Of a DNA stretch of 39,054 nt, positions 1 to 39,054 are shown piece by piece; the stretch's first letter is position 1, and every line of letters starts with the position of its first letter. Source of the stretch: a virus; IMG/VR virus record IMGVR_UViG_3300001263_000001; one strand, 5' to 3'. A model generated the notes under the pieces. It saw only the letters and a list, made by a program, of their open reading frames with translations, searched no databases and was not told where the DNA came from. Position numbers and translations under genes: made by a program.

Positions 1-47
1 GCCATAGCCATAGCCAGAGCCAGAGCCAGAGCCATCGCCAGAGCCAT
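1..47 (-). repeat. GCCATA/GCCAGA/GCCATC hexanucleotide tandem array. On the minus strand it encodes the (Ala-Met/Ala-Leu)n N-terminus of the RHH gene whose body lies at the window end (ATG at 47..45).
   Basis: Strict 6-nt periodicity over 1-47. Nt 1-37 are identical to nt 39018-39054. The reverse complement reads ATG GCT CTG GCG ATG GCT..., in frame with ORF 38867..39052 only if the 37-nt overlap is collapsed (47+151=198 nt). Confidence 0.8.
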
Positions 48-58
48 AGTTAAAAATT

Positions 59-2617: not shown

Positions 2618-2646
2618 TTGACTTTTACAAACGTACTTTGTAAAAT
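2618..2646 (+). promoter_or_regulatory. sigma70-like promoter with a palindromic operator in the spacer (twin of 38667..38695)
   Basis: TTGACT (2618-2623), 17 nt, TAAAAT (2641-2646). The spacer and -10 contain TTTTACAAA-CGTAC-TTTGTAAAA (2623-2645). Confidence 0.6.
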
Positions 2647-5742: not shown

Positions 5743-5911
5743 AAAGACAAAAGTTGAAAGAAACCGTATTACAAGCAACCCCAGAACAGCCCAAAAGAGA
5801 GCCATCTCTAAGGTGAAAAGAGCAAAACTTTCACCAAAAGAGTTCGGTGAAATTATATGCACCCAACAGCATGAATACAAAAAAAAATATAAAAAAAAGA
5901 ATCGAAAGTGA
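5735..5911 (+). CDS. small basic protein (58 aa), not in the ORF track
   Basis: ATGGATGA overlap with the stop of 5407..5742. Translates MDEKTKVERNRITSNPRTAQKRAISKVKRAKLSPKEFGEIICTQQHEYKKKYKKKNRK. It is the last ORF before the terminator. Confidence 0.45.
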   Translation: MDEKTKVERNRITSNPRTAQKRAISKVKRAKLSPKEFGEIICTQQHEYKKKYKKKNRK

Positions 5912-5957
5912 AAAACCATGCTATGATAAATTGTTCATACGATCAGACCTCAACTTG

Positions 5958-5982
5958 ACCTGCTTTACGGCAGGTTTTTTTG
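5958..5982 (+). terminator. rho-independent terminator of the early-right operon
   Basis: ACCTGC-tttacg-GCAGGT followed by TTTTTTT. Confidence 0.7.
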
Positions 5983-5987
5983 TGCGT

Positions 5988-6013
5988 AAAAAAAAGGGGC
6001 TAAATTGCCCCTT
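5988..6013 (-). terminator. rho-independent terminator of the antisense cassette
   Basis: AAGGGGC-taaatt-GCCCCTT. On the minus strand the hairpin is followed by T8. It overlaps the stop codon of 6000..6413. Confidence 0.6.
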
Positions 6014-6413: not shown

Positions 6414-6488
6414 AATTTAAATTCCTTTTTTGTGCTGTGTTTGGCATAATCGGCTTTATGTGTTCAATTGTAGTAACTTCTCCCATAT

Positions 6489-6698
6489 TCAGCCTTTTGT
6501 AATGATTTTTGTGACATTAGACATTATTGCTTGCAACGCCTTTGTATCTGTAATCTTATTGGTTTCTGCTACGCTTTTCATGTAAGAATGACACATAGCA
6601 GCAATGGCATACAGAGCGTCTTCACCCTGTATAGGGTTTGATCCTTGCACAAGTTCAAAATTCATGCCGCTCATTACAATTTTCATTTCTTTTTTCAT
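6489..6698 (-). CDS. hypothetical protein
   Basis: ATGA-type overlap with the upstream 6695..6964 gene. Confidence 0.55.
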   Translation of the reverse strand: MKKEMKIVMSGMNFELVQGSNPIQGEDALYAIAAMCHSYMKSVAETNKITDTKALQAIMSNVTKIITKG

Positions 6699-6964
6699 TT
6701 TGCCCCCAACAATTTTGTTATTTTAGCAACCAGACCTTCAACTTGCTCTTCTAACTCTTCTGCATTGCCCGTAATATTAACAGTGATGTTAAAGGTGATG
6801 TTAAAGGTGATGTTTGTAAGTGTGCCAGTATTGACTTGGTTGTTTTTGCTTTCGGCTCCACCTCCAGTGCTGTTTATAACAACAGAACCGCCTTTTGGTG
6901 GAACTATTATTTCTTCACCATATCCGTGAGGGCTCATTTCACGAAAATTTATCATATCGTGCAT
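6695..6964 (-). CDS. hypothetical protein with an NITF/NITV tetrapeptide tandem repeat
   Basis: TNITFNITFNITVNITGN is encoded by the 12-nt repeat GTGATGTTAAAG (6783-6818). It has the same leader/RBS as 6000..6413. Confidence 0.6.
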   Translation of the reverse strand: MHDMINFREMSPHGYGEEIIVPPKGGSVVINSTGGGAESKNNQVNTGTLTNITFNITFNITVNITGNAEELEEQVEGLVAKITKLLGAK

Positions 6965-7001
6965 TTTAAATTCCTTTTTTGTGTTGTTCGTAAGATCACC
7001 A

Positions 7002-7019
7002 TACTTAAATATTTAAGTA
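7002..7019. promoter_or_regulatory. perfect 18-bp palindrome in the divergent region between the antisense cassette and the late operon
   Basis: TACTTAAAT|ATTTAAGTA. Confidence 0.4.
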
Positions 7020-7121
7020 ACGTCAACATCGAATATCAAAAAAAATAATATAATTTTACTTTAATAAATAAAATGCTATTATTTATATAAATTATCTATC
7101 TTAAAAAAAATGGAATGAATT

Positions 7122-7604
7122 ATGGAAGTTTTAGGAGTTACAAAAACATCAAGAGATACAGCCATTGTGAAGTTGTCCGAAAGATACAGAAGCATTTTTC
7201 CAGTGCCAAGCTTAATCGAACTCAATAGCATATTCCCTGAGCACCTTATGGGGATGTATAGACATGCAAAGCAAGAGAACAAATTCTCTCTTTCCCAAAC
7301 ACATCCAAATTTTGCAGCAGACATGCAGGAAATAAATGCGCAGCTGGATGCAGACCAAGCAGAAGCAGAACAAATATATCTAAGAACGAAAGAAGAAGCA
7401 CGTCAAAGACACGCCGCCGCCGCAAAGCAAAAAATCGAATCAATACTGCCTAAAACAAGCGACCATTTTGAGCCAAAAATTATTAAGTTTGTCCCTGCGG
7501 ACGATAGTGAAAATAAATATGGATCTGTAGAAATTGATTATAATACGATCCTATTCGATGCAAGACCAACAGCAACAGAAGAGGAAGAAGAGAGGGAAAT
7601 TTAA
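7122..7604 (+). CDS. hypothetical acidic protein preceding terminase
   Basis: ORF ends in a TAATG overlap with TerS. Start uncertain because internal Met codons exist. Confidence 0.5.
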   Translation: MEVLGVTKTSRDTAIVKLSERYRSIFPVPSLIELNSIFPEHLMGMYRHAKQENKFSLSQTHPNFAADMQEINAQLDADQAEAEQIYLRTKEEARQRHAAAAKQKIESILPKTSDHFEPKIIKFVPADDSENKYGSVEIDYNTILFDARPTATEEEEEREI

Positions 7605-8014
7605 TGACTAAGCTTACGGCTAAGCAAGATTTATTTTGCCGTGAATTTATTATTGATTTGAACGCAACGCAAGCAGCAGTAAGGGCAGGATATAGTGAGA
7701 GAACTGCCCGAATTACTGCAAGCAGACTGCTATCAAATGTTAACATTGCGAGTCGTATCAATGAGTTAAAGGAAAAAAGAGAGAAAAAAGTAGGAATTGA
7801 TGCGCAATGGGTTTTAGAACGTGCAGTAGAATTGCATAATATTTGCGTTAAAGAAAAAGAGTATAATGCTGCAAATAAATCACTGGAAATTGTAGGGAAG
7901 CACATCAGCGTGAATGCATTTGATAATAAGGTGACACTTGCAGGAGATCCAAATAAACCACTTATAACTCGTGTGGAGCGTGTCATTGTCGACCCTAAAA
8001 ATTCAGACTCCTAG
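7604..8014 (+). CDS. terS: terminase small subunit
   Basis: LTAKQDLFCREFIIDLNATQAAVRAGYSERTARITASRLLSNVNI is the Terminase_2-type signature. Confidence 0.9.
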   Translation: MTKLTAKQDLFCREFIIDLNATQAAVRAGYSERTARITASRLLSNVNIASRINELKEKREKKVGIDAQWVLERAVELHNICVKEKEYNAANKSLEIVGKHISVNAFDNKVTLAGDPNKPLITRVERVIVDPKNSDS

Positions 8015-9212
8015 ATGGTTTATTCCATTTCTTGACCATTATACCTTTAAAGGTATTTATGGAGGGCGTGGCTCTGGTAAATCGCACGCCGTTGCAGAAT
8101 ATATAATAGACAAATGCCTTGAAAAAAAAACAGATGTGGTATGTTTGCGAGAAGTGCAGAAATCTCTTAATTATTCCGTAAAGAAGCTTTTAGAGAGTAA
8201 GATTGAAAAGTTTGGGGTTCAAGATTATTTTGACATTCAATACGATAAAATAAAATGCAAAAATGGCGGCGTTATTATTTTTAATGGTCTTGCCAGTCAT
8301 TCAGCCGATTCGATAAAATCTTTAGAAGGGTTTGATATATTCTGGTTTGAAGAAGCGCAAAGTTGTTCTCAGAGATCTATGGAACTTTTATTGCCTACAT
8401 TGCGCAAAGATGATGGCGAGATTATTTTCACATGGAACCCTCATTTAGATACCGACCCTGTTGATGTTTTATTTAGACCGCAGGATGGAAAGGGATTGCC
8501 AAATTCTATTGTTTCTCGTGTAAATTATACAGATAACCCGTGGTTTCCTGATATTCTAAAAGACCAAATGGAATATATGCGTGGGCGTGATCCTGATAAG
8601 TATGCTCACATATGGCTTGGCGAGTACATGAAAAACAGTGAAGCCAGAATATTTAAAAATTGGACTATAGACGAATTTGAAGCACCGCCCGATGCAGTGC
8701 ATAGATTAGGGGCGGATTGGGGCTTTTCTATTGATCCAACTGTCCTGGTGCGTTGTCACATTATAGGGCGAAAGTTATATATCGATTATGAGGCATACCG
8801 CATAGGGTGTGAGATCACTGATACGCCTGATTTATTCATGGAGATCCCCGATGCTGAAAAATGGCCTATGACCGCAGACAGCGCACGCCCTGAAACAATA
8901 AGTCATTTGCGTAAAAATGGTTTCCCTAAAATAAGTTCAGCGGTTAAGGGGAAGAAGTCTGTTGAAGAGGGGATTGCATGGCTTCAATCTTTTGATATCG
9001 TTGTGCATCCAAGGTGTAAAAATACAATTGATGAGCTTATGGCGTATTCTTATAAAGTGGACGATATGACTGGCAAGGTGCTGCCTATTATTCAAGACAA
9101 AGATAACCATGTCATGGATGCGCTGCGATATGCGTGTGAAGGTGTGCGCCGTGCTGCAAACGTAAAAAAGAAACCCAAAATTGTGCCCTTGCCAAATGTT
9201 AATAAATGGTAG
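7971..9212 (+). CDS. terL: terminase large subunit (PBSX/Terminase_3-like)
   Basis: Walker A in IYGGRGSGKSHAVAEYII. WFEEAQ is a Walker B-like motif. The C-terminal nuclease part includes DWGFSIDPT and DNHVMDALRYA. GTG start at 7971 overlaps terS; the exact start is uncertain. Confidence 0.95.
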   Translation: MWSVSLSTLKIQTPRWFIPFLDHYTFKGIYGGRGSGKSHAVAEYIIDKCLEKKTDVVCLREVQKSLNYSVKKLLESKIEKFGVQDYFDIQYDKIKCKNGGVIIFNGLASHSADSIKSLEGFDIFWFEEAQSCSQRSMELLLPTLRKDDGEIIFTWNPHLDTDPVDVLFRPQDGKGLPNSIVSRVNYTDNPWFPDILKDQMEYMRGRDPDKYAHIWLGEYMKNSEARIFKNWTIDEFEAPPDAVHRLGADWGFSIDPTVLVRCHIIGRKLYIDYEAYRIGCEITDTPDLFMEIPDAEKWPMTADSARPETISHLRKNGFPKISSAVKGKKSVEEGIAWLQSFDIVVHPRCKNTIDELMAYSYKVDDMTGKVLPIIQDKDNHVMDALRYACEGVRRAANVKKKPKIVPLPNVNKW

Positions 9213-9247
9213 TATAATGTTATTTATGATAAATATAGTTGGATAAT

Positions 9248-11254
9248 ATGTCAAAAGATCGTGCAAATATACATGATAAAGCGGTGCGGGATTTTGACCG
9301 AATACAGGCGGCTATGCAAGATGAGCGTCAGCAATGCTTAGAGGATCGCAGATTTTACTCTATTTCAGGTGCGCAGTGGGAGGGTGACTTAGGGGATCAG
9401 TTCGAGAATAGACCCAAGTTCGAAGTCAATAAAATTCATTTATCAGTCATAAGAATTATTAATGAATATTTAACCAATCGCATCACAGTAGATTATGTGT
9501 CAAAAGATGGTGACAAAGATGATTTGTCGGGCGTGTGCGATGGGCTCTATCGAGCGGATGAGCAAGATAGCAATTCAAATGAGGCTTATGATAACGCATT
9601 TGAGGAGGCTGTGGGCGGTGGGTTTGGTGCGTACAGGTTTACAGCATTAGAAGAAAATGAAGAAGATGAAGAAGACGAAAGGCAGCGAATATCAATAGAG
9701 CCAATATATGATGCCGATTCTTGTGTGTTCTTTGATTTAGCCGCAAAAAGGCAAGATAAGAGAGATGCAAAATATTGTTTTGTGATTTCTTCTATGACGC
9801 GTCAAGATTTCGAAGAAGAATATCCTGAAGCGTCTCCAGTAAGTGTCTCAAAGGCTGTAGATGATAGCGTCTTTGATTGGGGCACAGATGATGTTGTTTT
9901 TATTGCTGAATATTATGTTGTTGAAATGCAAAAAGAAACAATCCACATTTATAAAGATTTAAGTGGATCAGAGCTCAGATACACAGAAAAAGAACTTGAA
10001 AAAGAACTTGAAACACTGCAGGCAACAAATGCATCATTTGTCAGAAGTAAGAAGGTAAATCGCAAGAAAGTGCGTAAGTATATTTTAAATGGAATGGAGA
10101 TCTTAGAGGACTGCGGTTACATTGCAGGCAAGCACATTCCTATAGTACCTGTCTATGGGAAAAGATGGTATATTGATAATGTAGAGCGTTGCATGGGACA
10201 TGTGAGGCTGTCTAAAGGTGCGCAACGTTTGAAGAACATGCAACTCTCAAAGCTTGCAGAAATTAGTGCATTGTCGTCTGTTGAAAAACCTATTTTTACG
10301 CCTGAGCAAATTGCAGGTCACCAAAATATGTGGTCTGAAGACAATATAAAAAATTATCCGTATATGCTAATCAATCCAATGACTGATTCAGACGGGAATG
10401 AAGTTCCTGCTGGCGTTCTTGGTTATACGAAACCCCCACAAATACCGCCTGCAATGGCTGCGTTACTTCAAGTCACAGAACAAGACATGCAAGATATGCT
10501 TGGCAAGCAAGAAGCAGGAGAGGAATTAAATTCCAATGTTTCTGGCAATGCTATAGAGCTTGTGCAAAATCGTTTAGATATGCAGTCGTATATTTACATG
10601 GATAATATGGCAAAAGCGATCAAACGTGGTGGCGAAATATGGCTATCAATGGCAAAAGAACTCTATGTGGAGAGTGGCAGAAAGATGAAGACTGTCGATC
10701 ATCAAGGCAAAACTTCACCTGTTATTCTTGCTCAATTGGATCAAGATGAAGAAACGGGCGACATTGTTTACAGAAATGATTTAACAAAAGCGAACTTTAA
10801 TGTTTCCGTTAATGTCGGTCCGTCCTCAACAAGCAGAAAGCAAGCAACAATAAGATCTCTTATGGCTATGATGCAGATCACAACAGACCCACAAACCATG
10901 CAAGTTCTGGGCGGTATGGCTATGATGAACATGGAGGGTGAGGGCATCGAAGATGTGCGTGATTATTTCCGTGAAAAAATGCTTAATCTTGGCGTTGTGA
11001 AGCCAACCAAAGAAGAAGCGCAACAAATGCAAGAGGCTATGCAGAATAAAAAGCCTGACGCAAATGAGGAATTATTGAAATCCGCTGCTGCAAAAGAGCA
11101 AGCTCTGGCGCAAAAGGCGAGTGCTGACACTCAATTAAGTACTGAGAAGGCAGCAGAAACGAGAGCCAAAACAGCTGAGATCTATGCTGGCATAGATCAG
11201 GCTGATAGAAATTTTGGCTTAGAATTATCAAAGGCAACCGCACAGCCTAATTAA
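9248..11254 (+). CDS. portal protein (P22-type, with a C-terminal helical barrel)
   Basis: Size and position directly after TerL. The Ala/Gln/Glu-rich C-terminal helix (EEAQQMQEAMQNKK...AAKEQALAQKASAD) resembles the P22 portal barrel. First ATG at 9248 (the ORF track starts at TTG 9239). Confidence 0.9.
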   Translation: MSKDRANIHDKAVRDFDRIQAAMQDERQQCLEDRRFYSISGAQWEGDLGDQFENRPKFEVNKIHLSVIRIINEYLTNRITVDYVSKDGDKDDLSGVCDGLYRADEQDSNSNEAYDNAFEEAVGGGFGAYRFTALEENEEDEEDERQRISIEPIYDADSCVFFDLAAKRQDKRDAKYCFVISSMTRQDFEEEYPEASPVSVSKAVDDSVFDWGTDDVVFIAEYYVVEMQKETIHIYKDLSGSELRYTEKELEKELETLQATNASFVRSKKVNRKKVRKYILNGMEILEDCGYIAGKHIPIVPVYGKRWYIDNVERCMGHVRLSKGAQRLKNMQLSKLAEISALSSVEKPIFTPEQIAGHQNMWSEDNIKNYPYMLINPMTDSDGNEVPAGVLGYTKPPQIPPAMAALLQVTEQDMQDMLGKQEAGEELNSNVSGNAIELVQNRLDMQSYIYMDNMAKAIKRGGEIWLSMAKELYVESGRKMKTVDHQGKTSPVILAQLDQDEETGDIVYRNDLTKANFNVSVNVGPSSTSRKQATIRSLMAMMQITTDPQTMQVLGGMAMMNMEGEGIEDVRDYFREKMLNLGVVKPTKEEAQQMQEAMQNKKPDANEELLKSAAAKEQALAQKASADTQLSTEKAAETRAKTAEIYAGIDQADRNFGLELSKATAQPN

Positions 11255-28710: not shown

Positions 28711-28860
28711 TTATTCCCCTATTTCTTCTTCATGTTTTTTTTCTTGTAATATTTTAAGTATTTCAGCGGAGCGAGAACGCTTGTTTTCTTTTCGCCTTGT
28801 GTCCAGCCAATCAATAAGATCAGGTTCTTTTTTCACATAAATATTAATACTACATGTCAT
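28711..28860 (-). CDS. ribbon-helix-helix (Arc/CopG-like) protein, 49 aa, not in the ORF track
   Basis: MTCSINIYVKKEPDLIDWLDTRRKENKRSRSAEILKILQEKKHEEEIGE has a strand-helix-helix pattern. ATGA overlap with the upstream gene. Alignable with the RHH at 38867..39004. Confidence 0.6.
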   Translation of the reverse strand: MTCSINIYVKKEPDLIDWLDTRRKENKRSRSAEILKILQEKKHEEEIGE

Positions 28861-29168
28861 TTTCTAAGCCTCTTTTTTGTATTTGAAAAATTTACGCCCC
28901 TAAGGTCTGCATTTGTGAAGTCTGTGTTGTAAATATTAGATCCTTCAAAGTTTGCATCTTTAAGATATGCGTCACTAAAGCACACACCTTCAAGGTCAAA
29001 TCCAGACATATCCGCCCCCCCCAAATCTGCCCCTGTGAAGTCTATTCCATCATCAATGGCATTTGATATGGCTCGCCCAAGCTTGACTGAGTATGGTGTA
29101 CTTTCGTCTCCTAATATTGTCGTTGTGTAAATAACGTTGTGATCTCTGTCTATAATTGAAAATTCCAT
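28857..29168 (-). CDS. pentapeptide-repeat protein
   Basis: ADLGG ADMSG FDLEG VCFSD AYLKD ANFEG SNIYN TDFTN ADLRG VNFSN. Start moved to Met13 (MEFSII) behind ACAGGAGCGATAAA. Confidence 0.85.
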   Translation of the reverse strand: MEFSIIDRDHNVIYTTTILGDESTPYSVKLGRAISNAIDDGIDFTGADLGGADMSGFDLEGVCFSDAYLKDANFEGSNIYNTDFTNADLRGVNFSNTKKRLRK

Positions 29169-29187
29169 TTTATCGCTCCTGTTGTGT

Positions 29188-30021
29188 TTATAAAATTTTA
29201 CCATGAGGTAATAAGTTCTTAAAATCTTCTAAATCAATAGCGTACAGTAAAGTGTTGATAATTTTTAATTCAAGATCTTTGCCTAGAACACCATGTCCAC
29301 TTTTTTCATTTTCATATGTGTAAAAATTATAATTAAGATTTGTGGGATTGTTTTTAAGATGATTATAGTACGGTAAAAAATGATTTTTATAATGAAATTC
29401 ATCATATATATTTTGCGTGACAACTAAATTGAAACTACCGTCCCAGTCATAGCAATTCATTCTTTCTTTGTATGTTTTGTAAATTAAATCTTTATCATCA
29501 CTAGAAAAAAGATCTTCACGCATTTTATTATAATGTTTTTGATAATATTTACTTGCATCAGTTTGTATATTTCCGCAGTAAACTGTTGAATTTTTTAAAT
29601 ATGTGCCCATTTTTATTGCAGGAATACCACCGCCACTTGTGCCATAAATTAACACGTCTGAAGTGTTCACATTTAATCCCAAAAATACTTCTTTAAAAAG
29701 TTCAGCAAGGATTTCCGCATAATGTTTTTCTTTGGTTCCAACAAACCAAGCCAAACGCAAGTCTTCAGAAAGAAATAATGAAGGATCAAATAATGAAATA
29801 ACATTGGCTTCGATGCCATCTGAAAAATTTGATCTTTGGAAAGATGGAATTGTTTTCTTTGTATCTCTTGAGTGCGCTCCAGGGGTGAATATAACCCATT
29901 TTTCATCCCCTTTGTAATCCAAGTACATGGGGAATAAAACTCCTTTGTAAGAAAGAAAAAAGCTACTTTTCCCCACTTTCAAAGCATCTTTAAAATTAAA
30001 AAATATTGAATCGCTTATCAT
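29188..30021 (-). CDS. alpha/beta-hydrolase fold protein (esterase/acyltransferase-like)
   Basis: Nucleophile elbow LIYGTSGGGIPA (GxSxG) and a late His in EKSGHGVL. No signal peptide. RBS ACGGAGATTTTAT. Confidence 0.7.
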   Translation of the reverse strand: MISDSIFFNFKDALKVGKSSFFLSYKGVLFPMYLDYKGDEKWVIFTPGAHSRDTKKTIPSFQRSNFSDGIEANVISLFDPSLFLSEDLRLAWFVGTKEKHYAEILAELFKEVFLGLNVNTSDVLIYGTSGGGIPAIKMGTYLKNSTVYCGNIQTDASKYYQKHYNKMREDLFSSDDKDLIYKTYKERMNCYDWDGSFNLVVTQNIYDEFHYKNHFLPYYNHLKNNPTNLNYNFYTYENEKSGHGVLGKDLELKIINTLLYAIDLEDFKNLLPHGKIL

Positions 30022-33924: not shown

Positions 33925-33978
33925 CTATTAAAAAACTATTAAAAAACTATTGATAGTTTCAACCTATTGATATATAGT
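33925..33978 (+). promoter_or_regulatory. tandem repeats plus a promoter for the DUF262 unit
   Basis: CTATTAAAAAA x2 (33925-33946) and CTATTGATA x2 (33947-33955, 33964-33972). TTGATA (33950-33955), 17 nt, TATAGT (33973-33978). Confidence 0.55.
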
Positions 33979-34000
33979 GATTTTATCGAAAGGATGGAAT

Positions 34001-34399
34001 ATGGATATAAATATAACACAAGAAAAGCTGTCAATCGGTCAGCTTTACAACGAATACAAGCAAGGTGATATTATTCTATCTCCAGAATATCAAAGGGACT
34101 TTGTTTGGTCGCAAAAAATGAAGGATAAGCTTGTAGAAAGCTTTATTTTGGGCATCCCAATTCATGATATTGTTTTTGCTCAATTTTCCAATAGGGAAAA
34201 AGGCTATAGAGACGTTTTAGATGGTAAGCATCGCCTTAAGGCATTGTTTGAGCATTTGGATAATATGCAAAAGCAGGGACGAGGATTTGTTGACTTTAAG
34301 CGTAAAGGCTTAGCTATAACGGAAGTTATAGATCCAACAGAAGCGCAAGTTTTAGAAATATATAATAGGTTAAATTATGGGGGCGTAGCGCACAAATGA
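34001..34399 (+). CDS. stand-alone DUF262 (ParB/Srx-fold, GmrSD N-terminal-like) protein
   Basis: ILSPEYQRDFVWSQKMKDKLVESFILGIPIHDIVF...VLDGKHRLKAL is the DUF262 signature (PxxQRxxVW...DGQQR). ATG 34001 lies behind AAAGGATGGAAT. Confidence 0.75.
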   Translation: MDINITQEKLSIGQLYNEYKQGDIILSPEYQRDFVWSQKMKDKLVESFILGIPIHDIVFAQFSNREKGYRDVLDGKHRLKALFEHLDNMQKQGRGFVDFKRKGLAITEVIDPTEAQVLEIYNRLNYGGVAHK

Positions 34400-34599
34400 A
34401 GAAATGGAAAGATTTTTTTAATACATTTGGAACACTCGAAGACTTTGCAGTAATCTCAGGTTTTTCTGCACCAACAATCTGGCGGTGGTCAATGCAGAAT
34501 AGAGTTCCAGCAAATAAGCACAACCAGATGATTGATCTGGCTAAGGGCAACGCCGTCAAGTTAAACCACGCAATTATAAAGAAAATGGAGAAGAAATAA
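34396..34599 (+). CDS. Cro/YdaS-like small HTH protein
   Basis: LEDFAVISGFSAPTIWRWSMQNRVPANKHNQMIDLAKG follows the YdaS/Cro pattern (...VSQW...R.VPA...). ATGA overlap. Confidence 0.6.
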   Translation: MKKWKDFFNTFGTLEDFAVISGFSAPTIWRWSMQNRVPANKHNQMIDLAKGNAVKLNHAIIKKMEKK

Positions 34600-34760
34600 T
34601 GGATGAATTAGAGCAATTAAAAAAGTTTTTAGATATTGAGCTTGAAAAACATAGTAAATGGGCGGGCGAAGTTCCTGAATGGGTCATAAAAAGAAATGAG
34701 GTTATAAAAAAAATAAAAAGAAAAGTAATATGTTTGCAGCAAAAAATGGAGAAGAAATGA
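34599..34760 (+). CDS. 53-aa hypothetical protein, not in the ORF track
   Basis: TAATG overlap upstream and ATGA overlap downstream. MDELEQLKKFLDIELEKHSKW... Confidence 0.45.
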   Translation: MDELEQLKKFLDIELEKHSKWAGEVPEWVIKRNEVIKKIKRKVICLQQKMEKK

Positions 34761-34873
34761 TTAAGCTTCTCAAAGCCCTATTTACACGGCGCGACATCGA
34801 GCATGAATATCAACATGCATATGATGTGCGCGTAGACTTACTTAAAAAGATTGACACATTCATTCCGACATAA
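34757..34873 (+). CDS. 38-aa hypothetical protein, not in the ORF track
   Basis: ATGA overlap. MIKLLKALFTRRDIEHEYQHAYDVRVDLLKKIDTFIPT. Confidence 0.35.
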   Translation: MIKLLKALFTRRDIEHEYQHAYDVRVDLLKKIDTFIPT

Positions 34874-34935: not shown

Positions 34936-34970
34936 AAAAAGCCCCACCGTAAAAAGTGGGGCTTATTTTT
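34936..34970. terminator. bidirectional rho-independent terminator
   Basis: GCCCCAC-cgtaaaaa-GTGGGGC, with an A-run upstream and TTATTTTTATTT downstream. Lies between convergent units. Confidence 0.8.
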
Positions 34971-34993: not shown

Positions 34994-35605
34994 TTATCCA
35001 TTTTTTTTCCTTTCAAAAAAATGTTTCAAGCCTTCTTGATGGTTGGGCGATAAAGGGTCTTGCTTCCAAGTGCCATCACCAGACCTCATTAAAATTAAGC
35101 CATTATCAAAAAACATTCTTTCATAGTCTTGAGAGGTTTCAGGTACAACTTGCACCAATTTTACCTTATCCACGCCATACCCTGCCATGTGACCGCCTTT
35201 GGCATTCAAGGCTTCTCTCTTTGCATCAACCCTTGCAAAAGCTTCCTCAATTTCTTTTATCTCGGAATGTGTTATCTGTGGTGCTTCTATACCGTGATTG
35301 CTTGTAAAGGTGTCGATATGTTTCTCTACTTCACTATTAGGGATTATATGATCCTCCTCATTGTCTAATCGCAAATATTTTTTGAGATCATCTGCATTTA
35401 TGTATGTGCCTTTTACTTCTGACGGTGGGGTGTCTTCGGCATCAATAACAATGACTTTTTTAAGATCGTCTAAATAAAAGTAGCACGGTGATAAAGCAGT
35501 TTGAATTTTTGCTTTATCCGCACTTAAACCAATAACTTTAAATATACCGCCATTAGGTTTTGATATATCTCTTACCCAATCACCGACTTTAATTTCTTCA
35601 CTCAT
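34994..35605 (-). CDS. hypothetical protein
   Basis: 203 aa. RBS AAAAAGGAGAAGGCA. Last gene of the early-left operon. Confidence 0.7.
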   Translation of the reverse strand: MSEEIKVGDWVRDISKPNGGIFKVIGLSADKAKIQTALSPCYFYLDDLKKVIVIDAEDTPPSEVKGTYINADDLKKYLRLDNEEDHIIPNSEVEKHIDTFTSNHGIEAPQITHSEIKEIEEAFARVDAKREALNAKGGHMAGYGVDKVKLVQVVPETSQDYERMFFDNGLILMRSGDGTWKQDPLSPNHQEGLKHFFERKKNG

Positions 35606-35771
35606 TGCCTTCTCCTTTTTGTTTTTCTAGCATTTCTATGATGTATTCGTTTTGTATGTAAACAGCACCGATAAGCACGTTATTCAAAGTATTCACATCT
35701 TTGTCTTTTCTGAATTTATCTATCGCTTCCTGAACTGACTGCTTTACTTCCAAGTATGATTTCTTCTTCAT
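35598..35771 (-). CDS. 57-aa hypothetical protein, not in the ORF track
   Basis: MKKKSYLEVKQSVQEAIDKF... RBS AAGGAATGTT. ATGAGTGA overlap with the next gene. Confidence 0.5.
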   Translation of the reverse strand: MKKKSYLEVKQSVQEAIDKFRKDKDVNTLNNVLIGAVYIQNEYIIEMLEKQKGEGNE

Positions 35772-36057
35772 AACATTCCTTACATTTCCAGTTTTCTGTT
35801 TTTACTTTACCCATGCGCATTGTGTGCTGTGCATGGGTGGCTGGTTGACCGCATTTGCATATTTTAGGCGGCTGGTGCGGTATAAAGCGTGAAAAGTAAT
35901 AACTCTTCACCTTTTGTTTATTCTCTTCTAGCTGTGCATCTGTGAGGTCTCTATAGACTTCTTGCAGTTGACTGCATTTATGCTTTTGAAGGATTATCTT
36001 GTATTTCTTCGATGACTGTTTTTTGATAAGCGAAACCTCCCTTTTCAACATTTTCAT
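35716..36057 (-). CDS. zinc-ribbon-like small protein; start uncertain
   Basis: KICKCGQPATHAQHTMRMGKVKTENWKCKEC (CxC...CxxC). It is the only ORF covering 35772-35977. No convincing RBS. It overlaps both neighbours. Confidence 0.4.
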   Translation of the reverse strand: MKMLKREVSLIKKQSSKKYKIILQKHKCSQLQEVYRDLTDAQLEENKQKVKSYYFSRFIPHQPPKICKCGQPATHAQHTMRMGKVKTENWKCKECYEEEIILGSKAVSSGSDR

Positions 36058-36763
36058 AATTGATAAAAAAGCAAGGGTCTGATAACCCATAAGGGTTGAT
36101 TTCAAGAAACAATGCTTTTTCACTATATGGATGAAAAAAACAATCAAATACAAAATCTTTCATTTCAATGCATGGAAGTATTTTTTCGTATAGATCATTA
36201 ATTTCTTTAACAGTTTCCTTAATGCAATCCTCAGGAAAACCTTTTATTTTTGTTCCCTCATATTGGGAAATTGCAATCAATTTTCTGTCCTTAACAAAAC
36301 AACGAAACTCTTTTTGATCTAAGTAGTGATCCCATTCCGCAAAATATAAAAATATCTTTTCTTCTGATAGTTGAAGTAAGTGTATGTCGTCAAAAGCTCT
36401 CATGCTAGAACTAAGGCTTTCAAAAACCTCTTCTTCTGAGAAGCATTTTATTGTTGCATCTTTTGGACTTCTTCTGTTTAGTCTTACAAATTTAGCTCTT
36501 CCCGTTGCGAAGGCAGGCTTAATCAGTTCTAAAAATTGTTTTTTAGACTGCTCACATACATTTCCGTCTGCCATATTTAAAAAAAACTGTGAGTATTCGG
36601 TAATGTCAAACTTGTAGCAAAAAGAAGGCACTTTATGTTTTAATAACCCTTCTGACCAGTTGTTAATCAGGAATTTAAATTCGTATTTATGTCGTTCTTT
36701 CATTTCTCTAGGCGTGGGCATTTTCGAAAAATCTGGTATAGGTATTGTTTTTAATTCAGTCAT
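35978..36763 (-). CDS. CDC123/D123-family ATP-grasp protein (eukaryote-like)
   Basis: KFVRLNRRSPKDA, EFRCFVKDRKLIAISQ, DFVFDCFF and FLEINPYGLSDPCFF parallel human CDC123 FPKLNWSAPRDA, EFRCFVKENKLIGISQ, DFVFDIY and LIDFNPFGEVTDSLLF (recollection). Start moved to Met28 (36763), 15 nt after the SSB stop. Confidence 0.85.
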   Translation of the reverse strand: MTELKTIPIPDFSKMPTPREMKERHKYEFKFLINNWSEGLLKHKVPSFCYKFDITEYSQFFLNMADGNVCEQSKKQFLELIKPAFATGRAKFVRLNRRSPKDATIKCFSEEEVFESLSSSMRAFDDIHLLQLSEEKIFLYFAEWDHYLDQKEFRCFVKDRKLIAISQYEGTKIKGFPEDCIKETVKEINDLYEKILPCIEMKDFVFDCFFHPYSEKALFLEINPYGLSDPCFFINYENVEKGGFAYQKTVIEEIQDNPSKA

Positions 36764-36777
36764 GTTAAAACTTTCAA

Positions 36778-37143
36778 TTATTGTGGATAGATCGGTGCTT
36801 GTGGGTCGTGCGGATTGTAGTGCTGTGATTGTGGATTTTTCCATGGGTTATCGAAGTCATAAGAAGAAACATCTATGAAAATATCCTCAACCCCTCGACC
36901 GTCTTTTAACGGTCTAATTGTGCCATTAACGGTGATTTTCATGCCTGATTTCAGGTTATCCATGATGTATTGGTTTCCAAACGCCGCAATGCATTTAAGC
37001 CAAACTGTTTTCTTTTCACGATTGCCGTTTACAGTTTTGTACTGATTGTCTGCAACTGTAAACGCTGCTTTTTCCTTGCCGTCTTTGGTGAATGAAACAG
37101 GGTCATCTTTGACCCTGCCTGTAACTGATACGCTATTGACCAT
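36778..37143 (-). CDS. ssb: single-stranded DNA-binding protein (OB fold), atypical C-terminus
   Basis: VSVTGRVKDDPVSFTKDGKEKAAFTVADN...REKKTVWLKCIAAFGNQYIMDNLKSGMKITVNGTI follows the SSB OB-fold pattern. TAATG overlap with the exonuclease gene. The C-terminus PHDPQAPIYPQ lacks the usual acidic tip. Confidence 0.8.
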   Translation of the reverse strand: MVNSVSVTGRVKDDPVSFTKDGKEKAAFTVADNQYKTVNGNREKKTVWLKCIAAFGNQYIMDNLKSGMKITVNGTIRPLKDGRGVEDIFIDVSSYDFDNPWKNPQSQHYNPHDPQAPIYPQ

Positions 37144-37910
37144 TATTTTTCCTCTGTCTGTAGGTTTTCTTTGCGTGACTTGCACAATTGCACTGGTGAT
37201 TGGATATGTGTAGATGCACTTAAATCCATTATTTTATTTTTACTCAAAAGTTCCATACTTTTAATTGGTTTTTCAATTTCAAAGCCACGATTTTTTAAAA
37301 TCTGTATTCCATTTTCAATAAGATAATTAAATTCGTGTAACTGCTCTTTTAAGAGGTTGATAAACTTTTCATCTCTGTAAGTTCTAACTAAAGATGGTGG
37401 TAAATCTGGGTGATAAGAAAACCAGTCAACCCATTCAAGATCTGCCGTAAGCATTTGCCCTTGCACCTGTTGGAAATATTTTTTATCAATCTTTCCGTCA
37501 TCTTGCATAAACACATTTTTTACATGTCTTGCGTATTGGGGGCATTTAATTTCAGCTGCTCCGACAAGGTTTTTTCCCTCGTAAATCCTTACATCTGGCG
37601 ATGCGCCATAGGTAATTTGGTCATCTGTAAAAAAACCACCACTTTTAATTTCGGTGTCTGTCAAAAGCTCATAAGTCTTTATTGCGGTTTCTTCGTTATC
37701 CTTCCCCCATTGCATAGCAAAAGTGTCAAACTCTTGTGTAATAGGTCGCCCCATATATATTTCAGCGACACACTCATAAGCGTAATCTTGCGCTTGTGTG
37801 CTGGGATTGCCAGATAATGTAATTATTCTATTAAATGCGCTTGCTGTTGGTATTCCAGCCCTTGCCATATACCAATCATCGGTATTTTGCTCTACATCCC
37901 AAAACTTCAT
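37143..37910 (-). CDS. YqaJ-like (lambda-Exo-type) recombination exonuclease
   Basis: EQNTDDWYMARAGIPTASAFNRI, YGASPDV and AAEIKCP are YqaJ PD-(D/E)XK motifs. Confidence 0.85.
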   Translation of the reverse strand: MKFWDVEQNTDDWYMARAGIPTASAFNRIITLSGNPSTQAQDYAYECVAEIYMGRPITQEFDTFAMQWGKDNEETAIKTYELLTDTEIKSGGFFTDDQITYGASPDVRIYEGKNLVGAAEIKCPQYARHVKNVFMQDDGKIDKKYFQQVQGQMLTADLEWVDWFSYHPDLPPSLVRTYRDEKFINLLKEQLHEFNYLIENGIQILKNRGFEIEKPIKSMELLSKNKIMDLSASTHIQSPVQLCKSRKENLQTEEK

Positions 37911-38632
37911 AATGATTTACCCACTTTTGATAAAAGTAATCTATGAGCTTCTTGAAATTTAGATAGCTTCACATTTAGCATACTATCAACGCCGCAAAAT
38001 TGCATAAACTTTTCTCTATCTGTTTTTGTGTTAATAACAAGTTTTTCAAGCAATTCAGCTTGCTCTTGTGAAATAACCTGACTTTGATATATTTCTGAAC
38101 CCTCTGTTGTTTCAGTGATGTCTAAAGCGTTTATAAAGTTGGTACGCTTGCCAAAGCTTGCCGTGGACTTTGCCGCTTGCATAGGGCTTTTCAGGGCGTT
38201 TGTGCTATCCATAGGAGTAACAAAATCAAAAACTTCACTGTGTCCGCCTATGTGACGCAAAACAGATGAAACAACCATTTTCCCGTCTAATTGTTTTGTT
38301 TTGTGTGAAAAAGTAAACCCATACTTTTCTAAAATTGGGTTTATATGCTCGTGCAAATCTTCATATTTGGAATATCGGGAAGTTATATTGCCAGCTTTGT
38401 TTTTTATAGCTCCCTTTTGAATTATCATTGGGAGGTCTTTTTTAAGAGCAAAAAAGGATTGGTTATATTCCAGTTCCGCTTGCTTATCCATCATCTTAAT
38501 CTGGACTTCTAGCAAACGCTCCATTTTGCTGACATCTACGTCTTTATCTTTTGCAGCTGTTGCAATAACATTAATCATGTCTTGCGCTACTGATGTGCTT
38601 TTTTCATCATCTTTGATAGTTAAATCACTCAT
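37907..38632 (-). CDS. erf: ERF-family single-strand annealing protein
   Basis: KNKAGNITSRYSKYEDLHEHINPILEKYGF parallels P22 Erf KNQYNSFGKYKYRSCEDILEGVKPLLKG, and AAKSTASFGKRTNFINALDI parallels GATSSYARKYCLNGLFGI (recollection). Start moved to MSDLTIKD behind GAAAGGCAGAAA. Confidence 0.75.
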   Translation of the reverse strand: MSDLTIKDDEKSTSVAQDMINVIATAAKDKDVDVSKMERLLEVQIKMMDKQAELEYNQSFFALKKDLPMIIQKGAIKNKAGNITSRYSKYEDLHEHINPILEKYGFTFSHKTKQLDGKMVVSSVLRHIGGHSEVFDFVTPMDSTNALKSPMQAAKSTASFGKRTNFINALDITETTEGSEIYQSQVISQEQAELLEKLVINTKTDREKFMQFCGVDSMLNVKLSKFQEAHRLLLSKVGKSL

Positions 38633-38666: not shown

Positions 38667-38695
38667 ATTTTACAAACATGCTTTGTAAAATGCAA
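38667..38695 (-). promoter_or_regulatory. sigma70-like promoter of the early-left (erf) operon with a palindromic operator in the spacer
   Basis: Minus strand: TTGCAT (38695..38690), 17 nt, TAAAAT (38672..38667). It contains TTTTACAAA-N5-TTTGTAAAA (38668-38690). About 30 nt upstream of the erf ATG. Confidence 0.65.
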
Positions 38696-38735: not shown

Positions 38736-38793
38736 GGTAGGCAAAAGGTAGACGAAAGGTAGACGAAACGGTAGAGCAAACGGTAGACGAAAT
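38736..38793. repeat. five tandem 11-12-bp direct repeats, GGTAGACGAAA(C)
   Basis: GGTAGGCAAAA, GGTAGACGAAA, GGTAGACGAAAC, GGTAGAGCAAAC, GGTAGACGAAAT. They lie upstream of the erf promoter and downstream of the RHH terminator. Confidence 0.85.
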
Positions 38794-38827
38794 GCAGAGT
38801 AACAAAAATTTAAAGGCGTTTCGGGCA
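38794..38827. repeat. second copy of the two modules that form the promoter region at 534..569 (order swapped)
   Basis: GCAGAGTAACAAAAA (38794-38808; also at 553-567) and AAATTTAAAGGCGTTTCGGGCA (38806-38827; also at 534-554 with a 1-nt indel). Confidence 0.8.
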
Positions 38828-38860: not shown

Positions 38861-38866
38861 TTGTGT

Positions 38867-39052
38867 TTATTTGCTTTCATTCATTAATTTTTCTATTAAT
38901 TCAATAATGAAAACTGACTGAGATTTTCTTCCTCTGTTCGCTTCAAGATACTCAAAATATTTTATATCTTTTTCAGGGAAATATATTTGAAGTCGCTTAA
39001 CCATCGCCAGAGCCATAGCCATAGCCATAGCCAGAGCCAGAGCCAGAGCCAT
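38867..39052 (-). CDS. ribbon-helix-helix (Arc/Mnt/CopG-like) protein with an N-terminal (Ala-Met/Ala-Leu)n repeat; the gene continues across the window junction to ATG 47
   Basis: VKRLQIYFPEKDIKYFEYLEANRGRKSQSVFIIELIEKLMNESK has an RHH pattern. The upstream residues MALALALAMAMAMALAM are encoded by the hexamer array. The core alone could start at ATG 39004. Confidence 0.7.
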   Translation of the reverse strand: MALALALAMAMAMALAMVKRLQIYFPEKDIKYFEYLEANRGRKSQSVFIIELIEKLMNESK

Positions 39053-39054
39053 CG
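39005..39054 (-). repeat. hexanucleotide array (GCCAGA/GCCATA/GCCATC), right-hand copy
   Basis: The same array as 1-47; 39018-39054 is identical to 1-37. Confidence 0.85.

Follow-up and report, generated by a model that had tools for sequence, protein, structure and literature searches.

A CDC123/D123-family ATP-grasp gene in the predicted early operon of a lambdoid phage

The IMG/VR virus record IMGVR_UViG_3300001263_000001 is a contig of 39,054 nucleotides (nt), which was analysed at its full length and is referred to here as the window. On its minus strand it carries a gene for a 261-residue ATP-grasp protein of the CDC123/D123 family, also called R2K.1. Sequence profiles, the predicted fold and the catalytic residues leave us almost certain that this protein is a compact, single-domain member of the family and that the phage carrying it is complete and lambdoid, with a P22-like structural module. 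We tentatively propose that the protein is made early and acts as an ATP-dependent enzyme, probably a ligase, by which some conserved component of the host would be altered in the service of takeover or counter-defence; this proposal falls just short of probable, and it is weighed below against four others.

35978–36763, minus strand: CDC123/D123-family (R2K.1) ATP-grasp gene, 261 aa (open reading frame, Pfam, profile, AlphaFold2 fold, residue conservation)

Family assignment, fold and active site

The open reading frame (ORF) starts with an ATG at 36763 and ends with a TAA stop codon at 35980–35978. Its limits match exactly those given in a preliminary description of this DNA, which had named no strand, and the same 261-aa product was obtained when genes were called independently on another public contig of identical sequence. 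A 288-aa version that begins at an ATG at 36844 was rejected, as it runs into ssb and as both the gene callers and the homologue alignment favour 261 aa. With 32.1% G+C the gene is the lowest in its operon (genome, 37.4%), which fits an accessory gene. A terminator-like hairpin within the gene, at 36088–36075, was dismissed as a chance occurrence: its stem has only 5 bp, and it is made up of the codons of the conserved NPYGLSDPCFF motif.

The protein matches the Pfam family D123 (PF07065) with an expectation value (E) of 2.5e-17; its score of 63.4 bits exceeds the curated cut-off of 24. Its score for Pfam R2K_2 is 20.3 bits, under the cut-off of 26.2, and R2K_3 gives no match; an ExN motif where R2K.3 proteins have ExGD also sets it apart from that family. 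A search of 5.8 billion proteins returned 35 relatives, all of which carry PF07065. When a profile built from 32 of these homologues was run against all sequences in the PDB, it recovered human CDC123 (8phd) with E=1.4e-24 and Schizosaccharomyces pombe Cdc123 with E=5e-15. A wider search by profile, over 1.84 billion cluster representatives, gave 232 clusters with E<=1e-30 and 2455 with E<=1e-10. Scans of ten other family members put D123 alone above threshold each time. No model in PHROGs v4, PADLOC-DB 2.0 or NCBIfam 20 matches the window protein.

The predicted structure leads to the same family. An AlphaFold2 model computed from the homologue alignment has a mean predicted local distance difference test score (pLDDT) of 92.7 and a predicted template modelling score (pTM) of 0.85. 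In a Foldseek search of the PDB, the top ten matches are all Cdc123 proteins, with E from 2e-14 to 1.5e-11, template modelling (TM) scores of 0.56–0.69, 212–289 aligned columns and 19–24% identity. The next fold class comprises D-Ala-D-Ala ligases and other ATP-grasp enzymes and lies far behind (E about 1e-5, TM 0.3–0.4). In a library of viral structures, Cdc123 proteins of giant viruses rank best (Clandestinovirus, Tupanvirus, Medusavirus, Lausannevirus and others; E 1e-14 to 1e-11, TM up to 0.70), and phage ATP-grasp proteins appear only from rank 17. The ATP-grasp model of Agrobacterium phage Atu_ph07 is a far weaker match (E=4e-6) than the Cdc123 proteins (E about 1e-14).

The family assignment made in the preliminary description is thus borne out by profile, predicted fold and catalytic residues. 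That description had named a failure of profile searches to recover D123 as evidence against it, and the searches recover both D123 and human CDC123 at the scores given above. All four motif blocks that it quoted occur in the translation (KFVRLNRRSPKDA, EFRCFVKDRKLIAISQ, DFVFDCFF and FLEINPYGLSDPCFF), and the human strings it set beside them (VFPKLNWSAPRDA, EFRCFVKENKLIGISQ, DFVFDIY and LIDFNPFG) agree with the HMMER alignment to 8phd wherever this alignment covers them, the tail EVTDSLLF lying beyond the aligned stretch. Its wording requires two corrections. A match "nearly residue for residue" holds for the motif blocks only, since overall identity to the Cdc123 structures is just 19–24%. 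The term "eukaryote-like" is misleading, since the protein is part of a sizeable prokaryotic and phage radiation with invariant residues of its own and is not a recent eukaryotic import.

The R2K clade is defined by two basic residues in and after strand 2 of the RAGNYA fold, and the catalytic positions of human CDC123 are K104, D233 and D246xN248 (PMC4431377). These positions align with R94, D207 and E221xN223 of the phage protein, and human R111 aligns with K101, so that the two basic residues stand seven apart in both proteins (R94/K101 and K104/R111). R154 is the arginine of the first strand in the kinase-like domain, and E221-I-N223-P is the D/E-x-N motif of the last strand. To gauge conservation we used an alignment of 173 family members drawn from the two large searches. 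Position 94 is R or K in 172 of the 173 relatives; K101, R154, D207, E221 and N223 are each kept in the same number, and E152 and D126 in all 173. Degenerate ATP-binding residues, which the preliminary description had raised as a possible objection, are therefore not what the alignment contains, and the phage protein is predicted from these residues to bind ATP and to have ATPase activity.

The alignment also points to features that the eukaryotic proteins lack. Human A109 and R111 line the ATP pocket of CDC123 (PMC12860950) and align with S99 and K101, which places the invariant loop R98-S99-P100-K101-D102 of the phage group at the nucleotide site. R98, R122, Y168 and, directly after NPYG, S228-D229-P230-C231 are invariant or nearly so among the phage and bacterial relatives; human and yeast CDC123 have S, F and R at the first three positions and also differ at the SDPC motif. 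We read these extra residues as a substrate pocket that the phage and bacterial proteins probably retain.

The phage genome and its predicted early operon

The window spans the entire contig, and its two ends share 37 exact bases, which indicates a circular, complete genome of ~39.0 kb. Genes for a large terminase, a P22-like portal, a major head protein, an Hc3 head-closure protein, a tailspike and an endolysin make up its structural and lysis functions, and a helix-turn-helix (HTH) regulator and an O-like replication initiator belong to a lambdoid early region. No integrase turned up among the window ORFs scanned, and the phage genome has no tRNA genes. The relatives of the portal are 62–66% identical and all metagenomic, one of them in a metagenome-assembled genome (MAG) of Burkholderiales; a search with the exonuclease matched only distant phages. 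Among 50,697 deposited phage genomes, megablast with the region found no match, tblastn with the D123 protein none to E<=1, and tblastn with a homologue (P0013) none to E<=1e-3.

On the minus strand, a promoter is followed by erf, a yqaJ-type exo, ssb, the D123 gene, a gap in which no gene is called, orf57, orf203 and a bidirectional terminator. The features of this unit, and the second promoter that bears on its control, are as follows.

38667–38695, minus strand: predicted sigma-70-like operon promoter, read from the sequence; -35 TTGCAT (38695–38690), 17-nt spacer, -10 TAAAAT (38672–38667)
38669–38689, minus strand: palindromic putative operator TTTACAAA-N5-TTTGTAAA in the promoter spacer; inverted repeat of 10+10 nt, 100% complementary
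37907–38632, minus strand: Erf-like single-strand annealing protein, first gene of the operon (PHROG 155, E=1.7e-23)
37143–37910, minus strand: YqaJ-type recombination exonuclease (Pfam YqaJ, E=2.7e-22; PHROG 149)
36778–37143, minus strand: single-strand DNA-binding protein, 121 aa (Pfam SSB, PHROG 44, gene call)
35772–35977, minus strand: uncalled gap between the D123 gene and orf57, 206 nt (gene call)
35598–35771, minus strand: orf57, 57 aa, downstream of D123 in the erf-exo-ssb-D123 transcription unit (ORF list and gene call)
34994–35605, minus strand: orf203, 203 aa, final gene of the operon (from the ORF list and the gene call)
34939–34964, both strands: bidirectional intrinsic-terminator-like hairpin; 10-pair stem with 6 GC pairs and a T-run on each strand
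2618–2646, plus strand: second predicted promoter, TTGACT / 17 nt / TAAAAT, with an exact operator copy (palindrome 2624–2644) in its spacer

The junctions of the operon are tight. The start of exo overlaps the erf stop (ATGA), the start of ssb overlaps the exo stop (TAATG), and the D123 ATG follows the ssb stop by 14 nt. Judged from the position of the promoter, erf likely starts at the ATG at 38632 and not at the TTG at 38695. The promoter upstream of erf is the only one that was found for the unit, and no convincing terminator precedes the hairpin at 34964–34939, which would end both the erf-to-orf203 operon on the minus strand and a convergent cassette on the plus strand. This arrangement agrees with the earlier suggestion that the D123 gene would be co-transcribed with erf, exo and ssb.

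The control of the operon was described previously as an operator-controlled early promoter, and the palindrome strengthens this description. It occurs exactly twice in the genome, each time inside the 17-nt spacer of a promoter, the second of which precedes a plus-strand unit that starts at an ATG at 2653. Two exact copies at the same position in two promoters are good evidence for a shared repressor-type operator and suggest that one regulator may control both the erf-exo-ssb-D123 operon and the plus-strand unit. The timing of expression is deduced from this layout: as the product of the fourth gene in a translationally coupled operon behind a promoter with a repressor-type palindrome, the D123 protein is expected to be made alongside the recombination proteins at an early stage of lytic growth.

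The two genes downstream of D123 resemble no family in the databases searched (orf57: Pfam, PHROG and NCBIfam; orf203: Pfam, PHROGs, PADLOC and NCBIfam). Starting from a GTG at 35910 in the gap, a possible 64-aa ORF (35716–35910, minus strand) overlaps orf57 and has a CxC...CxxC zinc-ribbon-like pattern but no family match. Just upstream of the erf-operon promoter, at 38741–38798, GGTAGACGAAA is present in three exact copies (four if degenerate ones are counted) with 11-nt spacing, where 0.36 matches are expected by chance; the array looks like iterons or a set of regulator-binding sites.

Several further observations concern other parts of the genome. The end overlap falls inside a (GCCATA/GCCAGA)n hexamer repeat (window positions 1–49 and 38867–39054, minus strand), and an ORF that crosses the junction would encode about ten Ala-Leu/Ala-Met dipeptide repeats fused to a 45-aa ribbon-helix-helix-like domain, with a terminator after it at 38862–38835; alternatively, the repeat may be a leader prone to slippage. 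The plus-strand cassette that converges on the early operon, and shares the terminator at 34939–34964 with it, occupies 33977–34873. Its first gene encodes a 140-aa, fragment-sized DUF262/GmrSD_N protein that resembles the N-terminus of the defence proteins NsnA and PD-T4-2_A (PADLOC E=2.5e-22) and may be a moron or a truncated defence gene. In the region where late and early genes meet, 28857–29204 (minus strand) encodes a 115-aa pentapeptide-repeat protein (Pfam E=2.4e-15); proteins of this type are often DNA mimics.

Relatives, their neighbourhoods and known systems

Roughly two dozen distinct loci had a readable genomic context, and ORFs were clustered around 22 loci. Most loci with annotatable surroundings show phage or prophage features. 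Seven relatives lie on IMG/VR viral contigs of 28–62 kb and several more on metagenomic contigs of 31–65 kb with phage genes; others were found in genomes of Bradyrhizobium, Rhizobium, Roseovarius, Parvularculaceae, Microvirga, an actinobacterium and Zavarzinella. Those of Bradyrhizobium, Rhizobium and Roseovarius are held in prophage-like regions, and one on a Paraglaciecola MAG contig stands in a phage-like early region. A scan of metagenomes added few long loci, and many of its hits duplicated known ones.

Only two neighbours recur in the ORF clusters: RecT, upstream in 6 loci, and a tyrosine integrase, 1–2 kb downstream in 7. Such an arrangement typifies the leftward early region of temperate phages. 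At two other loci (L022 and L026) the gene stands at the start of the rightward early operon; a gene for a Cro-like HTH protein directly precedes it at L026 and lies a short way upstream at L022. A specific functional tie to recombination was considered and rejected, as several relatives lie on the operon opposite ssb/rad52 or kilobases away from recT.

Genes that act against host defences are found near some of the relatives. Lar restriction-alleviation genes occur at L001, L022, L023 and L028, and DNA methylases at L001, L006, L023 and L026. In Bradyrhizobium diversitatis CNPSo 4019 (L014), a gene for the type I Thoeris inhibitor Tad6 (7567–7965, E=5.5e-39) immediately precedes the D123 homologue (7998–8786). 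The ORF clusters contain no conserved partner or substrate gene, and the ten longest family members have no extra domains or fusions. The sole domain fusion seen is a 326-aa DUF3310-D123 protein (L023, 8001–8981), whose neighbours are a TnpB/IS605 OrfB gene, Lar and a DNA methylase. The G+C content of the loci ranges from 37% to 65%; a stand-alone enzyme with an invariant pocket in phages of such different bacteria argues for a universally conserved target.

Other neighbours of conflict type were noted at single loci. At L027 a DUF6527 ("BubE") gene (5750–6004) lies immediately upstream of the homologue and a SUKH gene 2.7 kb downstream. At L029 a Fic/DOC gene (7170–7967) follows the homologue at a distance of 1.4 kb, and at L024 genes for an ADP-ribosylglycohydrolase and a metallophosphatase flank it (6464–7318 and 8780–9568). 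In Methylobacter marinus A45 (L021, 4990–8549) a D123 homologue stands behind a gene for a WHH/colicin-DNase toxin and a pair of SUKH (SMI1/KNR4) immunity genes. With 24% identity, this is the most distant relative that we found.

At the Zavarzinella formosa locus (L016), a Panacea/SocA antitoxin-domain gene (9220–9765) lies downstream of the homologue. Within 8 kb there are this gene and one for a Cro/CI-type HTH protein and no structural phage genes; the viral status of the locus comes from IMG/VR. The homologue here, and that of the IMG/VR provirus L009, are 100% identical to Z. formosa gi 521962559, which stands as Zfor_521962559 in the 2015 supplementary alignment of R2K.1 (PMC4431377). 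The subfamily was thus already correctly filed under CDC123 in 2015, but under the label "bacterial". The profile of the phage group gives this protein 207 bits; myxobacterial members score 130 and 93, a human fragment 89.5, Legionella 67 and other bacterial members 53–68.

In the published classification, the R2K clade consists of three families: CDC123/R2K.1 in eukaryotes, giant viruses and some bacteria; R2K.2 (DUF4343) in bacteria and "a few bacteriophages"; and R2K.3 (PMC4431377). Two contexts were described for bacterial R2K.1 genes (Burroughs, Zhang & Aravind 2015, PMC4431377): polymorphic-toxin loci of the type VI secretion system (T6SS) that include SUKH immunity genes, and effectors of the Legionella type. 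Roles in phage-host conflict were proposed for R2K.2 and R2K.3, and links to phages were given for these sister families only (PMC4431377). R2K ligases have also been noted in some jumbo phages (PMC7824862). Our full-text literature searches turned up no experimental study of any phage or bacterial CDC123 homologue and no ATP-grasp protein among described anti-defence proteins. The earlier picture of bacterial members described computationally, with no characterised phage copy, is accurate.

What is known experimentally concerns the eukaryotic protein, an ATP-binding chaperone that assembles eIF2 through domain III of eIF2-gamma (PMC8844851, PMC12860950). The mammalian protein binds ATP and has ATPase activity, the latter known since late 2025 (PMC12860950). 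The phage protein shares with the eukaryotic structures (human 8PHD and 8PHV; S. pombe 4ZGN, 4ZGO, 4ZGP and 4ZGQ) the PF07065 family and the two-domain ATP-grasp fold over almost its whole length. Common to both are the catalytic positions (K/R in RAGNYA strand 2, another K/R seven positions on, the R of EFRCF, the D of VFD, and D/E-x-N) and the blocks LNxxxPxD, EFRCFVK, DFVFD and NPF/YG. Besides the residues of the putative pocket, the two differ in that the phage protein lacks the low-complexity inserts and the C-terminal extension of its eukaryotic counterparts; the crystallised human construct has 356 residues (about 20 of them extra by the numbering used here), against 261 in the phage. 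Bacteria and phages have no eIF2, so the known assembly function of CDC123 cannot apply to them.

The bacterial R2K.1 proteins share further motifs with the window protein (F-x-R/K-L-x-S-R-S-P-K-D, S-E/M-R-x-x-D-D and E-I/L-N-P-Y/F-G-x-S/T-D-P-C) and differ from it in setting: the window gene lies in a phage early operon, and its relatives lie beside recombination, integrase and anti-restriction genes. Unlike the toxin-linked members, it has erf, exo, ssb and small unknown ORFs as neighbours, with no SUKH or toxin domains in Pfam, PHROG and PADLOC scans. The CDC123-like effectors of Legionella in the 2015 alignment have long N- and C-terminal extensions and inserts, in contrast to the bare 261-aa core of the phage protein. 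R2K.2 and R2K.3 proteins resemble it in belonging to the R2K clade, in being phage-borne and in being predicted modifiers of host proteins. The giant-virus Cdc123 proteins are 16–22% identical to it and come from viruses whose hosts are eukaryotes with eIF2, whereas the window is a bacteriophage of ~39 kb. Finally, D-Ala-D-Ala ligase, RimK and LysX/ArgX share the ATP-grasp core and the Mg/ATP-binding residues, and their chemistry, carboxylate-amine ligation through an acyl-phosphate, is the one proposed below for the phage protein, but these classical ligases are distant in fold and have their own glycine-rich loop and linker lysine.

Possible activities and their significance

In the mechanism that we propose, ATP-Mg would be bound through R94, K101, D207 and E221xN223 and spent in the manner of other ATP-grasp ligases, by way of an acyl-phosphate. 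The enzyme would thereby join an amino acid or a short peptide to a substrate that very different bacteria have in common and that is most likely a host protein, with the result that the cell is redirected or a defence disabled. The absence of a dedicated partner gene from the ORF clusters and the position of relatives among anti-restriction and anti-Thoeris genes point to a stand-alone effector of takeover or counter-defence. Pocket residues that are kept in the phage and bacterial group and lost in eukaryotic CDC123 would favour real chemistry. The early takeover role suggested in the preliminary description is a reasonable reading, which the counter-defence neighbours of the homologues strengthen.

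Several points weigh against this proposal. Ligase activity has never been shown for any CDC123-family protein; for the eukaryotic one, nothing beyond ATP binding, ATPase activity and the role of an assembly chaperone is on record (PMC8844851, PMC12860950). Fewer than half of the distinct loci have Lar, a methylase or Tad6 as a neighbour, and such evidence is guilt by association in gene-dense, mosaic regions. In the window itself, Pfam, PHROG and PADLOC scans recognise no anti-defence gene beside D123. The grouping of the family-specific invariant residues around the ATP site, in turn, is a prediction from the alignment.

The enzyme might instead link an amino acid to a metabolite or to a molecule derived from a nucleotide, which could serve, for instance, to inactivate a defence signal, to restore a depleted metabolite or to produce a modified precursor. 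We consider this rather doubtful. Most characterised ATP-grasp enzymes use small molecules, the next-best fold matches are D-Ala-D-Ala ligases, and a small substrate would fit both the lack of a co-conserved protein partner and neighbours such as the Thoeris inhibitor at L014 and the ADP-ribosylglycohydrolase and metallophosphatase at L024. However, the R2K clade is without the usual small-substrate, glycine-rich loop and the linker lysine of classical ATP-grasp enzymes, and its discoverers predicted that it acts on proteins (PMC4431377); nor does the window contain a linked gene of biosynthesis or nucleotide metabolism.

An unlikely alternative to the ligase is an ATP-dependent binder without ligase activity, which would clamp domain III of a translational GTPase as eukaryotic Cdc123 does and would remodel or sequester it, thereby redirecting translation or blocking a defence linked to EF-Tu. 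EF-Tu, IF2, SelB and EF-G are the bacterial paralogues of eIF2-gamma and would be the candidate partners. No fold is closer than that of Cdc123, which matches along almost the entire protein, N-terminal domain included (253–289 aligned columns), and the wide host range fits a universally conserved target. The ability to bind domain III of eIF2-gamma and ATPase activity, with no ligase activity demonstrated, are what is recorded for Cdc123 (PMC8844851, PMC12860950). On the other side, eIF2 is absent from bacteria, and the invariant residues R98, R122, Y168 and C231, lost in eukaryotic CDC123, better fit a retained chemical step.

The neighbourhoods also bear on a reading that we regard as decidedly unlikely, in which the gene is a toxin-like or exclusion module for the benefit of the lysogen and acts in abortive infection, superinfection exclusion or interbacterial conflict, like the R2K.1 genes of polymorphic-toxin loci. 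Such loci of the T6SS type, with SUKH immunity genes, are on record (PMC4431377), and our set includes a genuine one, the Methylobacter locus (L021) with a nuclease and two SUKH genes upstream of the homologue, which is clearly distinct from the phage group. The SUKH gene downstream at L027, the Panacea/SocA gene at L016 and the Fic gene at L029 can be read in the same way. The window gene, however, has no promoter of its own, lies inside a lytic-type early operon behind a repressible promoter, adjoins no immunity-like gene and has no PADLOC match. Since the Methylobacter protein is also the most distant relative, the toxin-locus type looks like a different branch.

It is very improbable that the gene is a lysogenic-conversion effector that an amoeba-dwelling bacterium would deliver against the eIF2 machinery of eukaryotes: CDC123 homologues exist in Legionella and giant viruses and the G+C content of the window is low (37.4%), but the minimal 261-aa core lacks the long terminal extensions of the Legionella proteins, the phage-group profile gives Legionella 67 bits against 207 for the Zavarzinella member, the relatives belong to phages of free-living soil and aquatic bacteria, and the gene sits in a lytic early operon.

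We return to the early-made ligase as the reading we prefer. Its furthest extension would make the whole phage-borne CDC123 clade the first ATP-grasp effector of counter-defence or takeover, produced early and covalently tagging a universal host protein, with a translational GTPase such as EF-Tu as a pointed guess; in this form we think the idea somewhat unlikely.

Neither the family assignment nor a role in phage-host conflict is new as such, the latter having been predicted for the wider R2K clade. New here is the setting, early operons of phages and neighbourhoods with counter-defence genes, which had not previously been pointed out for the CDC123/R2K.1 family. Specialists who predicted conflict roles for R2K proteins will find this unsurprising; it is moderately interesting as a tractable handle on the ancestral activity of CDC123. 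It also exposes an annotation gap. PHROGs, NCBIfam and PADLOC contain no model for the group, so that its genes are annotated as hypothetical proteins. The deposited phage genomes searched have no member of it; it is found repeatedly in metagenomic phages and in prophages, with anti-restriction and anti-Thoeris genes as neighbours. Homologues in the cultured Bradyrhizobium diversitatis CNPSo 4019, Rhizobium sp. CFBP 8762 and Zavarzinella formosa DSM 19928 make genetics possible.

CDC123 is essential in eukaryotes, and its biochemical activity has been disputed since 2015: it has the fold and the residues of a ligase, yet only ATP binding, ATPase activity and chaperone-like assembly of eIF2 have been demonstrated. 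The family is thought to derive from bacterial conflict systems. With its intact active site and extra invariant pocket residues, the compact phage copy is a simple object on which to test what the ancestral activity was. If the phage enzyme does tag a GTPase-type host target, conflict enzymes of phages and bacteria would show which ancestral chemistry was domesticated into the assembly factor for eIF2 in eukaryotes.

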